Position numbers and translations under genes: made by a program. This document shows, in pieces, positions 27,687-38,783 of a stretch of 64,000 nucleotides of DNA. This DNA comes from an uncultured Thermus sp. (GTDB lineage Bacteria > Deinococcota > Deinococci > Deinococcales > Thermaceae), in NCBI GenBank assembly GCA_947085095.1, contig CAMTVD010000014.1, positions 211,939-275,938 of the forward strand, given 5' to 3'. Each line of letters starts with the position of its first letter. Within the stretch, counting starts at the first letter, position 1. The notes under the pieces were generated by a model. It worked only from the letters and a program-made list of their open reading frames with translations. It made no database searches and had not been told where the DNA came from.

Positions 27687-30600
27687 ATGGACCTGCAAGG
27701 TCTGCGGGATCGGCGGCTTTCCGCTCCCTTCTGGCCTGAGCCCGTGCGCCTGCTGCGGGTGGAGCCCTTAGGGCCCGCCTACGAGCTCCTGGCCGAGGGT
27801 CTGGAGAGCGGCAGGCTCCACCGGAGCCTCCTGAGCCAAGTCCAGCTGGAAACCCTCCTCGCCCTCCTAAGGCAAGAGGAGGGTCCCAGCCAAGACCCCG
27901 GGCTCTTCGCCCTGGGGGTGGAGGCCTGGCGCATCCGCCTGGGGTACACCTTTGACCCCTTCTTCGCCGTCTGGGCCAGCTGCGTGGACCCCCTGCCCCA
28001 CCAGCTGGAGGCGGTCTACGGGGTCCTCCTCAAGAGGCCCAGGGTGCGCTTCCTCCTGGCGGACGACCCTGGGGCGGGGAAGACGGTGATGGCGGGGCTC
28101 TTCCTCAAGGAGATGAAGTACCGGGGCCTCGTGCGGCGGGCCCTGGTGGTCACCCCGGCCAACCTGATGGACCAGTGGCGGCGGGAGCTCAAGGAGAAGT
28201 TCAACGAGAGCTTCGTGGTGGTGAACCGCTTCGCCGACCAGGCCCTCTACGGGGAGACCCCCTGGGAGCGGTACGACCAGGCCATCGTCAGCATGGACTT
28301 CGCCAAGCAGGACCGGTACCTGGAGGACCTGAGGCGGGCCCGGTGGGACCTGGTCATCGTGGACGAGGCCCACAAGCTCTCCGCCACCCGCTACGGCCAG
28401 GAGGTGAAGAAGTCCCAGCGCTACCGCCTGGGGGAGGTGCTGAGCCAGACGGCCACCCACCTCCTCTTCCTCACCGCCACCCCCCACCAGGGGGACGAGG
28501 AGCGCTTCCAGCTCCTTTTGGACCTCCTCGAGCCCGGCCTCTTCGCCAGCGCCCACCTCCTTAGGGAGGCGGCCCAGCAGGGGGAGAACCCCATCCTTCT
28601 CCGCCGCCTCAAGGAGGACATGGTGGACTTTGCGGGCAAGCCCCTCTTCCCCCCCAGGCGGGTCCACACCCCCACCTTCCGCCTCTCCCCTTCGGAAAGG
28701 ATGCTCTACGAGCGGGTGACGGAGTACGTGCGCAAGCATTTCAAGCGGGCCTGGGAGGAAAGGCGGCGCAACGTGGGCCTGGCCATGGCTGTCCTGCAGA
28801 GGCGGCTTGCCAGCAGCGCCCACGCCATCGCCCGCTCCCTGGAAAACCGCCTGCGCCGCCTCGAGGCCCTCAAGGAGGAGGCCCTCAGGCTGAACGCCCT
28901 TGGGGGCGGGGAGGAGGCCCTTGGGGAGGAGGACTGGGAGGACCTGCCCGAGGCGGAGCGCTGGCGGCTAGAGGCGGAGCTTTCCGAGAGGCTCACCCTG
29001 GCCAGGAACCTCCCCGAGCTGGAGAGGGAGATAGAGGAGCTTAAGGCCCTGGCCAGGGAGGCCAGCACCCTGGCCCGCCTGGAGGAGGACACCAAGTTCA
29101 AGGAGCTCCTCAAGGTCCTCGAGGCCCTGGGCGGGGAAAAGCTCCTCGTCTTCACCGAGCACAAGGACACCCTGGACTTCCTGGTCCAGGCCCTGAGGAA
29201 GCGGGGTTACCGGGTGACCTCCATAGACGGCTCCATGCCCCTGGAGGAGCGGGTGGAGCGGGAGCGGGTCTTCCGGGACGAGGCCCAGGTCCTGGTGGCC
29301 ACGGAGGCGGCGGGGGAGGGGATCAACCTCCAGTTCTGCGCCGTCATGGTCAACTACGACCTCCCCTGGAACCCCACCCGCCTGGAGCAGCGCATGGGGC
29401 GGATCCACCGCTACGGCCAGCGCTACGAGGTGCACATCTACAACCTGGTGGCCCAGGGGACCCGGGAAGGGGAGGTGCTCAGGCTCCTTTTGGAAAAGCT
29501 GGAGGCCATGCGCCAGGAGCTGGGCTCGGAGCGGGTCTACGACGTGGTGGGGGAGCTTTTGAGCGGGGTGAGCCTGGAGGAGCTCATCCTGGACCACCTC
29601 ACGGGGCGGAGGACCCTGGAGGAGATCCGGGCCATGGTGGAGTCCCGCCTGAGCCCCGAGCGGGTCCAGTACATCCGGGAGATCACCCTCGAGGCCCTGG
29701 CCAGGCGGGAGGTGGACCTCTCCCGCCTGCGGAAGGAGCTGGAGGAGAGCCAGGCCCGCCGCCTGGAGCCCGAGTACACGGAGCGCTTCTTCCAGAGGGC
29801 CATGGCCCGTCTGGGGGGAGAGGTGCGCCGCCGGGGGGACGGGCTTTTCCACGTGCGGGTGCCCTACGAGCTCCGCAAGGAAAGGAGGCTTCCCCCCGAG
29901 TACCCCCGGGCCACCTTTGACCCCAGCCCCAAGGGGAGGGTCTTCCTGGACGCGGAGCTTCTGGCCCCCGGCCATCCCCTCTTTGAGGCGGTTTTGGAGG
30001 AGGTCCTGCGCCTCGCCGAGCCCCACCTGCGCCGGGGGGCCGCCTTCCACGCCCCCGGGGTGGAAGCCCCCTTCTGCCTGGGCTACCTGGTCTTAGGGAT
30101 CCGCAACGGGCTTGGCCAGGTGGTGGGGCGGAGGCTTCTGGCCTTGGCGGAGGAAGGGGGGAGGATGCGTCCCTTGCCTCCGGAGTTCCTGGTGGACGCC
30201 ATCCCAGCCTCCTCCCAAACCTTCCCCTGCTCCCAGGTGGGAGAGGCCCTGAGGCGGTGGGCGGTGGCCCAGGTGCTCCCCCAGTACCAGGAGGAGGTGG
30301 CCAAGGAGGCCCTGCGGGAGACTGCCATCCGGCGCAAGTACGGCCTTAGGAGCCTGGGGCACCTCATCGACGAGTCCGCCAAGCGCCTCACCCAGCTGAA
30401 GCTGGAGGCCCTTCAGGGCAAGGACCTGAGGCTGGCGGTTCAGAACGAGGAGCGGCGCCTGGAGGAGCTGAAGGCCCGCAGGGACGGCTTGGAGAGGGAG
30501 CTTGCGGCCTCCGAGCAGATCTTCCCCGAAGGGGTGGAGCTTCTGGCCCTGGCCCACGTTCTCCCCTGGCCTTCCTCGGAGGAGCCTGGCCTCGAGGAGG

Positions 30601-30992
30601 ACCTCGAGGTCCGCAAACGGGTGGAGGAGGCGGCCATGGAGGTGGCCATGGCCTACGAGAGGCAGCAGGGCCGGAACCCGGTGGACGTGAGCCGGGAGAA
30701 CCTGGGCTATGACCTCCGCTCTGGGGACCGCTTCATTGAGGTGAAGGGGCGGGCGGGGTCGGGGAGCGTGGCCCTCACCCCCAACGAGTGGATCACCGCA
30801 GGCCGCCTTTTGGAGCGGTACTGGCTTTACATCGTCACCCACGCCCTCACCCAGCCCAGGCTGTACCTCCTTCAGAACCCCGCGGCCAAGGTGAGGCCGG
30901 GGGAGGAGCTAGAGGTGGTGCGGTACGTGGTGGCGGAGGAGGCCTGGCTGGGGGCAGCAGAGGAGGCTTCCGCACCCCGGGATGACCCTTAG
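27687..30992 (+). CDS. SNF2-family helicase with C-terminal DUF3883-like PD-(D/E)XK nuclease
   Basis: [54 protein letters not shown]-terminal [14 protein letters not shown]...LTPNEW. Confidence 0.9.
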
Positions 30993-38600: not shown

Positions 38601-38783
38601 GTGGAAAAGATCCCCGTCCTGGTGGACTTGATGGGGGGCCTAAAGGAGGCTAAGGCGAAGGAGGTGGAGCTCCAAGTGGTGCTCACCGCCCAGAGCTCTG
38701 AAGGCCTGGACCACTTCCAGCTGGAGATGGTGCGGGAGCTCCTGCGCCAGCACGGGCTGGACTACCGGGAGGAGGCCGAGTAG
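35604..38783 (+). CDS. Swt1-like HEPN domain fused to DUF499 AAA+ ATPase
   Basis: Start at ATG 35604 behind [13 protein letters not shown] (RxxxxH), [14 protein letters not shown] (Walker A), LILMDE (Walker B), [19 protein letters not shown]. Confidence 0.88.

Follow-up and report, generated by a model that had tools for sequence, protein, structure and literature searches.

The window analysed here is a 64,000-nt stretch of contig CAMTVD010000014.1 from the assembly of an uncultured Thermus sp. (GCA_947085095.1), and contains a four-gene island in which the genes hmaA, hmaB and hmaC, matching the Hma defence system, are joined by an embedded gene of Schlafen type, g2. All four genes are encoded on the + strand. 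The hmaA gene (27687..30992; 1101 aa) codes for a SNF2 helicase with a C-terminal NOV_C PD-(D/E)XK nuclease domain (Pfam SNF2-rel_dom, 1.8e-20; Helicase_C, 3.4e-27; NOV_C, 7.1e-20), NOV_C having been assigned to the PD-(D/E)XK fold (PMC11232893). It is followed by the embedded cassette gene g2 (31020..32714; 564 aa), which combines a Schlafen (AlbA_2) nuclease domain, a GHKL ATPase and two winged helix-turn-helix (wHTH) units (SLFN_AlbA_2, 1.6e-16; HATPase_c_4, 1.4e-16; and a weak HTH match). The third gene, hmaB (32810..35575; 921 aa), codes for a DUF1156 N6-adenine-type DNA methyltransferase (DUF1156, 2.6e-24 over residues 12-63, with methyltransferase matches under the cut-off), and the fourth, hmaC (35604..38783; 1059 aa), for a protein that combines an N-terminal Swt1-like HEPN domain (HEPN_Swt1, 1e-20) with a DUF499 AAA+ ATPase (DUF499, 8.5e-28). 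In its longest form the fourth open reading frame (ORF) begins at a TTG codon (35322), overlapping gene 3 by 254 nt and adding a low-complexity leader; the ATG at 35604, located 28 nt past the stop codon of gene 3, is the likelier hmaC start. The intergenic spacers of the island measure 27, 95 and 28 nt, respectively, and thus leave no room for an extra gene such as DUF3780.

Comparison against the PADLOC models matched the helicase to HmaA (PDLC00659; 1.5e-208, residues 22-1051 against profile positions 24-1131 of 1176), the methyltransferase to HmaB (PDLC00661; 7.3e-154) and the ATPase to HmaC (PDLC00662; 9.8e-152), the last of these matches starting at residue 158 (252 of the long ORF), with the N-terminal HEPN domain falling outside the profile. 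Under the published rule the hma genes share a strand and are separated by no more than three embedded genes (bioRxiv 10.1101/2024.01.29.577857); here hmaA, hmaB and hmaC are all encoded on the + strand with one embedded gene. We therefore conclude with high confidence that the locus is an intact Hma system with an embedded defence cassette, residing on a horizontally acquired island in a slot downstream of an M.TaqI gene. An earlier sequence-only reading had called four co-directional genes with these domains a defence island, and both parts of that call are borne out, the four + strand ORFs lying at the places given with domain contents on which Pfam agrees, and three of them matching the PADLOC Hma models end to end. 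The motifs named in that reading (DEAH, IEVK, DPPY, RNKWAH and Walker A) were likewise all located on the + strand. Together with further ones, the motifs present are motif I DDPGAGKT (28062-28085), the DEAH motif (VDEAHK; 28359-28376) and the D...EVK motif (IEVK; 30705-30749) of HmaA, the Schlafen Ex4ExK motif (ESLRLEFK; 31068-31091) and GHKL N-box (31896-31934) of g2, motif I DPFAGGG (33116-33136) and motif IV DPPY (34421-34438) of HmaB, and the HEPN motif RNKWAH (35901-35918), Walker A motif FGGGKTH (36318-36338) and Walker B motif (36651-36668) of HmaC. The island was also correctly set apart from the version with DUF3780 and a phospholipase D (PLD) nuclease (Gao_RL, Type-2 BREX-related or MANTIS), as the NCBIfam equivalogs score far below their cut-offs: phospholipD_antiphage reached 159.6 bits against a cut-off of 1100, the other two MANTIS-type equivalogs 197.3 against 1000 and 186.2 against 1200, and no PLD/HKD domain was found on the island helicase with Pfam. 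PglZ, the mark of bacteriophage exclusion (BREX) proper, was not found in the four island proteins (Pfam, PADLOC) or the ten flanking ORFs. For the defence island system associated with restriction-modification (DISARM), the DrmD model (NF038317) reached 385.5 bits against a cut-off of 610, and neither DrmA nor DrmB was found in the island. What did not hold was the ranking of the island as the window's best candidate for a system not yet described: its three core genes belong to Hma and the architecture is in print (PMC8565338, PMC11232893, PMC12839542). The elements thought to be new, namely the HEPN fusion, the C-terminal nuclease, the Schlafen gene and the RNase back-up, are all already described.

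The island is inserted among housekeeping genes, as had been proposed, with gyrB and HrpB located upstream, an M.TaqI-like methylase and an aminotransferase downstream, and an empty site in relatives. When the gyrB flank was compared in 15 same-genus genomes, 13 were found to have an empty site, where a conserved 128-aa ORF abuts the 3' end of the M.TaqI orthologue. The slot is occupied by an R.TaqI gene in G014 (L105:590-1183; RE_TaqI, 2.9e-57), after which the contig ends, and synteny is broken at the slot in G007, with S7 and EF-G present instead. Homology to the empty sites ends at ~27665 and resumes at ~38781, so that the 11.1-kb insert corresponds exactly to the four genes. DUF499 relatives are encoded in 13/41 related genomes; those of the same genus (9/24) are only 35-43 % identical, while the best matches (51-58 % identity) come from other families of the order, and this distribution of sequence identity indicates that the island was acquired horizontally. 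The slot beside the M.TaqI gene, which may hold nothing, R.TaqI or Hma, represents a compact case of defence-gene turnover at a single site.

The g2 gene stands apart from the hma genes in composition, with a GC content at third codon positions (GC3) of 0.747 versus 0.856-0.923, and is a passenger cassette of a common Schlafen type. Residues E17, E22, F23, K24, E294, N298 and H302 of its product are invariant in an alignment of 29 relatives. An AlphaFold2 (AF2) model built with this 29-sequence alignment (predicted local distance difference test score, pLDDT, 87.6) places predicted winged-helix units at residues 404-480 and 500-562. In a fold search the uncharacterised 3LMM was matched over the full length (1.9e-28), with the N-terminal domain resembling those of SLFN13, SLFN14, SLFN5 and SLFN11 and the C-terminus resembling MarR-type winged helices. 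No system-level match to g2 was obtained with PADLOC, just weak pAgo-associated and PDC-S50 ones, and none with NCBIfam. The g2 family is large, with at least 5857 proteins at E<=1e-10 among the 7998 scored, and HmaA is encoded upstream of the g2-family gene in only 6/80 of the best genome loci. Gene neighbourhoods were scanned in 26 loci, covering the two nearest ORFs on each side (103 ORFs; PADLOC, E<=1e-12); these derive from 40 g2-family loci with at least 4 kb on both sides, one of which gave no ORF call and thirteen of which (53 ORFs) were left out. The family member is found inside BREX in 3/26 loci, in the order PglX/g2/PglZ, and near Type I restriction-modification (RM) genes in 5/26, being placed between hsdM and hsdS in one of these. 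The remaining loci have Dnd (1 locus), Ssp/BrxC-like or DrmMI (2 loci) or other PADLOC matches (9 loci) as neighbours, or no defence genes (6 loci).

This distribution bears on the proposal that the four genes make up an undescribed system whose products would all belong to a single obligate machine with three nucleases. The same gene order does recur in L014, which belongs to another family of the order (49-61 % identity), as well as in environmental Thermus-like contigs and in L134, L135 and L138 (50-70 %). However, profile matches assign the three core genes to Hma, the g2 gene is compositionally distinct, its family mostly occurs outside Hma, in BREX, Type I RM, Dnd and Ssp contexts, and the architecture has already appeared in print (PMC12839542). 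Among eleven Hma loci from relatives, nine of which have colinear hmaA-hmaB-hmaC genes and two of which are cut by contig ends, only L014 and L015 have a g2 homologue between hmaA and hmaB. The closest genomic Hma relative, L013 (core proteins 61, 59 and 50 % identical), has no g2, and in one environmental allele the gene has been deleted (L142:501-770), the first ~48 codons being fused to the last few; the same deletion is observed as a joint 31169->32708 in X17. An obligate four-protein machine is thus highly improbable. L015 (G015:C1), a locus from the same genus, has a Schlafen homologue whose alignment is split into two parts (residues 4-107 and 101-560) ~1.2 kb apart, and this homologue may be interrupted. 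Several Meiothermus-like versions of the island incorporate PsyrT/PsyrA (1.2e-238 and 4.1e-57) as a second embedded system, placed after hmaA and ahead of the Schlafen gene (L130:2994-5947, L131, L137, L139 and probably L024), so the hmaA-hmaB junction stacks cassettes. A paralogue of g2, 37 % identical and with an AbiEi_4-type HTH, is encoded elsewhere in the same genome (G000:C14:66368-67693; L123:1393-3033). Its stop codon overlaps the next ORF, with neither a 3' spacer nor a 3' palindrome array, and it thus provides no test of the array described below; the one neighbour of this paralogue with a Pfam match is a histone-deacetylase-family gene.

The 95-nt spacer between g2 and hmaB (32715..32809) contains a palindrome array, a putative operator, composed of three dyads which share the half-site ATAACCG(C). 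Dyad 1 (CGGTTAACC-AC-GGATAACCG) is located at 32725-32744, dyad 2 (ATAACCGC-AACT-GCCGTTAT) at 32738-32757 and dyad 3 (ATAACCGCG-TC-CGCGGTTAT), which is perfect, at 32770-32789, while the hmaB ribosome-binding site AAGGAGG comes after the array. The perfect dyad is unique in the assembly (2.08 Mb in 41 contigs), the sole other genomic match requiring three mismatches. Similar arrays with other half-sites occur in the 3' flanks of g2-family genes from many phyla. Using the 90 nt past the stop codon, and scoring a 7-mer recurring at least three times and a perfect palindrome with 6-nt arms, the recurrent 7-mer was found in 45 % (35/78) and the palindrome in 50 % of the 78 family 3' flanks. The corresponding values were 8 and 25 % in the 5' flanks (n=79), 1 and 13 % inside the g2-family gene (n=82), 3 and 20 % in the 3' flanks of neighbouring ORFs (n=156), and 1 and 12 % in shuffles (n=1560). 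No such array was found ahead of hmaB in the eight Hma loci without g2. A cognate palindrome array is not described in the main texts of PMC13056530 and PMC12839542 (supplements aside) or in the SLFN-pAgo study (bioRxiv 10.64898/2026.05.29.728809), nor in the wider literature searched.

Given its position, the array could serve as the operator or promoter of hmaB-hmaC, with g2 acting mainly to control transcription of the hma genes that follow it, in the manner of BrxR or a C protein, instead of as an RNase effector. It ends ~20 nt ahead of the hmaB start and overlaps an A/T-rich, -10-like sequence, the recognition helix of the wHTH co-varies with it, and the g2 family is still widely annotated as DNA-binding protein. 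However, none of the 29 diverse relatives departs from the Ex4ExK motif or from the N-box and G-box of the GHKL domain, which argues for an enzyme. Across the family the place of the array behind the g2 stop codon does not depend on what lies downstream, which may be pglZ, hsdS, genes of the other strand or a gap of 750 nt, and the array is absent upstream of hmaB in the eight Hma loci that have no g2. Furthermore, the L142 deletion allele retains hmaB past the array, this 1098-nt contig ending within hmaB. A mainly regulatory role for g2 is consequently considered unlikely.

The array varies together with the last winged helix of g2, and close alleles give the clearest view of this. Two environmental alleles that are 91 % identical to the g2 of the window, L126 and L128, retain the half-site ATAACCGC. 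In L129, which is also 91 % identical, each of the three dyads has ATAACGAC in place of ATAACCGC in both of its arms. The L129 protein has 13 private amino-acid changes, of which four (E533G, D534R, F537S and R538H) sit at the start of the recognition helix predicted at residues 533-545 in the AF2 model (32613-32651, + strand). The nucleotide differences between L128 and L129 fall in the helix codons and in the half-site cores, with a single one in the 75 nt separating these patches and none outside them. In five further alleles (L124, L125, L127, L133 and L141) the last wHTH is swapped from residue ~497-498 onwards for a 'type B' version (QAEYLMRKL). These five alleles carry AACTCTG-N3-CAGAGTT arrays instead, and this pairing of 'type B' wHTH and array is found in Thermus-like alleles (84 % identical) and in Meiothermus-like loci (71 % identical) alike. 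The g2-deletion allele L142 keeps the array, here a hybrid of both half-site types. Comparison of the alleles delimits an exchangeable, putative specificity module on the + strand (32512..32819), comprising the last wHTH of g2, the array and the first hmaB codons. Other populations have an alternative here, as contigs from hot-spring RNA libraries (X16 and X19) show a joint 32512->32819 with 277 other nucleotides in place.

The association extends to distant members of the family. An [EP]DQA[FY]R helix together with a ATAACCGCG array was found for seven proteins, namely those of the window, L126, L128, L066, L040, L056 and L057, the last four of which belong to other phyla, and other helix types pair with other half-sites. 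Among ~80 loci, distant pairs sharing flank words have an excess of identity in the first winged helix (wH1, +0.026; reached by 3/2000 permutations) and in the second (wH2, +0.021; 52/2000), and no such excess was observed in the N-terminal domains. A two-residue code, made up of positions 537 and 538, performs better than a four-residue one: where both residues agree, 17/153 pairs share flank words, versus 96/2990, a result reached by 4/2000 permutations. A code of four helix residues could be assessed with only a few pairs, as 1/5 distant pairs with the same code share flank words and 1259/2000 permutations reach this value.

Physical linkage of helix and array is a real confounder. It is possible, if doubtful, that their association reflects linkage alone, helix and array recombining jointly without any binding and the palindromes acting as RNA hairpins or terminators. 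The swapped module is a single contiguous 306-nt tract, close alleles differ through replacement of the whole module, and the palindromes would fold as RNA too, with the fold search also matching the winged helices of SelB, which bind RNA hairpins. The family-wide signal is modest, limited to the wHTH domains, and the four-residue test has too few pairs. However, L129 differs from L128 in two separate patches with a single difference in the 75 nt between them, and every half-site of the three dyads has changed to the same ATAACGAC, a change which hairpin pairing alone does not need. Likewise, the distant proteins with the [EP]DQA[FY]R helix have the ATAACCGCG half-site in common, and the triple 7-mer occurs in 3 % of the 156 other 3' flanks versus 45 % of the 78 behind family members. 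On balance, these sequence patterns make it fairly probable that the Schlafen-GHKL-wHTH proteins encoded within Hma, BREX and RM loci bind DNA sequence-specifically, each with an operator array of its own past the stop codon; the last wHTH and the array would form a module of 0.3 kb that is quick to diversify and recombine.

Environmental alleles of the island occur at the same site in contigs L124-L129 and L140 (84-93 % identity), and the hma genes also vary among them. HmaA is evenly conserved. In HmaB, residues ~301-400 and 451-550 (33710-34010 and 34160-34460) are only 36-58 % identical, with alleles otherwise sharing 74-100 % identity, and these segments coincide with a dip in GC content to 0.625; they are read, from this sequence variation, as the putative target-recognition part. 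In HmaC, residues 951-1050 (38454-38753) share 46-82 % identity among alleles, with 9/10 bin values at 46-62 %. Across the hypervariable segments of both proteins, identity ranges from 36 to 62 % in most comparisons and up to 88 %. Such a pattern would fit an HmaB that sets a changeable target and an HmaC whose C-terminus serves as a fast-evolving sensor, the latter being a proposal made in PMC12839542. The points at which the allele series differs, i.e. the putative target-recognition segments of HmaB, the C-terminus of HmaC and the g2 module, mark the places on which selection acts.

The island is bordered on the left by the conserved small ORF of 128 aa (27280..27666, + strand), which lies outside the system and has its stop codon 20 nt before the hmaA ATG, so that the hma operon may be read through from this ORF or be leaderless. 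Identity of the ORF across the 15 same-genus loci amounts to 72-86 %, and no Pfam family covers it; it is placed between gyrB and the island and has a hydrophobic C-terminus. The right border gene, the M.TaqI orthologue (38762..39988, - strand), is likewise outside the system, with its 3' end overlapping that of hmaC by 22 nt. It matches PDB 2ibs_A over its full length (1.8e-170) and contains the Pfam domains Eco57I and TaqI_C. No restriction gene adjoins it, and it is 59-79 % identical across the genus, the adjacent aminotransferase being 88-93 % identical. The longest gyrB ORF (25255-27567, - strand; TTG start, 770 aa) is over-extended, and the true start is probably near 27180, since relatives align without stop codons only from residue ~130. 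There is no tRNA at the island borders, the sole tRNA being located at 59601, no inverted repeat around the left border, no direct repeat or target duplication when both junctions are read against nine empty sites, and no integrase among the 14 ORFs scanned in the island and its flanks. A terminator scan of 27300-40200 gave six terminator-like sites versus 9.2 expected, and is uninformative.

For the way in which Hma may operate, MANTIS is the best guide, being the sole member of the group with a worked-out mechanism (bioRxiv 10.64898/2026.09.23.753747). In that system the DUF499 ATPase and MtsB load the DUF1156 methylase, which yields hemimethylated asymmetric 6-bp sites, and unmodified sites, inverted pairs especially, trigger the helicase-nuclease (bioRxiv 10.64898/2026.09.23.753747). 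By analogy with this sister system and with homologues, from which the Hma steps are inferred, HmaB, loaded or controlled by HmaC, would methylate adenines at a short target, with the swappable target-recognition segment setting that target and the mark denoting self. On unmodified incoming DNA, HmaC and HmaB would recruit HmaA, whose SNF2 motor would translocate and whose PD-(D/E)XK domain would nick or cut the DNA. The HEPN domain of HmaC and the Schlafen-GHKL part of g2 are predicted RNases, and could halt translation when restriction fails. In g2 the winged helices would take the place of a sensor and the GHKL domain may work as in SLFN-pAgo, where ATP binding by GHKL leads to tetramerisation and assembly of the tRNase (bioRxiv 10.64898/2026.05.29.728809). 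Most likely, g2 would bind the palindrome array behind its own gene via its last winged helix.

Several points weigh against this scheme. Halomonas HmaA alone sufficed for protection, and over-expression of HmaB left T4 infectivity unchanged (PMC11232893); self-marking by HmaB in Hma is therefore unproven. MANTIS requires MtsB, which Hma does not have, and the loading step may differ. Slfn-HisKinase proteins were among the four architectures tested in a Nature Microbiology study (PMC13056530), and the protective Schlafens named in its text are the DUF262 fusion and the Ig-like fusion only, not HisKinase (PMC13056530). Of these, the DUF262 fusion is credited there with phage protection alone, and phage-triggered tRNA cleavage is reported for the Ig-like fusion RorSlfn5 (PMC13056530) and, in a separate study, for SLFN-pAgo (bioRxiv 10.64898/2026.05.29.728809). 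As only these two fusions are named as protective, RNase-based defence by HisKinase-HTH Schlafens, the architecture of g2, is unproven. Contigs from four hot-spring RNA libraries span the island at 85-99 % likeness, but cannot prove transcription, its starts or its strand, DNA carry-over being possible. A promoter scan of 27300-40200 found no sigma-70-like promoter where 0.4 were expected, and is uninformative.

The island itself is ordinary, as both Hma and the Schlafen-type passenger are already described, and it adds one more intact Hma/Type-1 locus, from a thermophile-like genome. Thermostable Hma proteins could aid structural and biochemical work on Type 1, the mechanism of which is unproven. 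The operator-helix pairing of g2 constitutes a moderate lead. HisKinase-HTH proteins account for 19.2 % of 5,930 prokaryotic Schlafens (pSlfns) and are the commonest prokaryotic Schlafen architecture (PMC13056530). If true, the pairing would explain the purpose of the wHTH part and make this architecture a testable DNA-binding switch. The g2 protein would then be parked or regulated at its own locus, providing a handle on how a widespread Schlafen class is silenced and triggered.

Among known systems, the closest is Hma, which the PADLOC paper introduced as a candidate (PMC8565338). Gene order and all three proteins are shared with that system, as is the fusion of SNF2 and NOV_C. In Escherichia coli, HmaA of Halomonas meridiana confers protection against T4; the NOV_C domain of this protein acts as a Mn-dependent nickase on plasmid DNA, and a D/E/K/E quadruple mutant is dead (PMC11232893). 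The Halomonas locus differs from the present one in what is embedded between hmaA and hmaB, this being Septu in Halomonas and a Schlafen-GHKL-wHTH gene here; embedded genes are found in 931/1485 Hma systems (bioRxiv 10.1101/2024.01.29.577857). Relative to the PADLOC definition, the present locus has an extra HEPN domain on the HmaC N-terminus, and it is carried by a thermophile-like genome whose GC content is 68 %. In a 2026 comparative study Hma is treated as the Type-1 DUF499-centred BREX-related (BR) system (PMC12839542). Shared with this type are the HEPN-DUF499 ATPase, the DUF1156 N6-methyltransferase, the Swi2/Snf2 helicase with C-terminal PD-(D/E)XK domain, the Schlafen-kinase-wHTH accessory gene in the locus and the hypervariable ATPase C-terminus, and at the level of gene content no difference from this island is apparent. 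According to that study, HEPN occurs on the N-terminus of the ATPase, an AAA+ protein of ORC/Cdc6 type, in 1370/2446 Type-1 taxa and the helicase is fused to a restriction endonuclease (REase) in 1921/2446, while Schlafen-kinase-wHTH genes are closely linked with BREX/BR loci in 1017 or more taxa. The helicase of Type 1 is described there as also including an N-terminal TUDOR, an inactive REase and an alpha+beta domain, and the ATPase a C-terminal RRM (PMC12839542). RM-like restriction with RNase back-up has already been put forward there (PMC12839542). MANTIS (Gao_RL, Type-2 BR) has a homologous DUF499 ATPase, DUF1156 methylase and SF2 helicase-nuclease, but is distinguished by an N-terminal PLD nuclease and DUF3780/MtsB, in contrast to the C-terminal PD-(D/E)XK nuclease and lack of a DUF3780/MtsB gene here.

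The g2 protein shares the domain make-up of the pSlfn HisKinase-HTH class, with its 'Schlatpase' supradomain, namely an AlbA_2 domain with Ex4(E/D)xK, a PF13749 GHKL domain and an HTH. It differs from SLFN-pAgo and the Ig-like Schlafens, which have an Argonaute or an Ig-like sensor as third module, in having a pair of winged helices instead. With respect to the array, the nearest parallels are the BrxR/WYL regulators and the C proteins of RM systems with their C-boxes, in which an HTH protein in a defence locus is accompanied by a nearby, diversifying palindromic site. The sites of these regulators lie upstream of the regulator's own gene, and the proteins themselves are not known to have enzymatic domains. 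By contrast, the array described here directly follows the stop codon of g2, a gene whose product carries both nuclease and ATPase domains.

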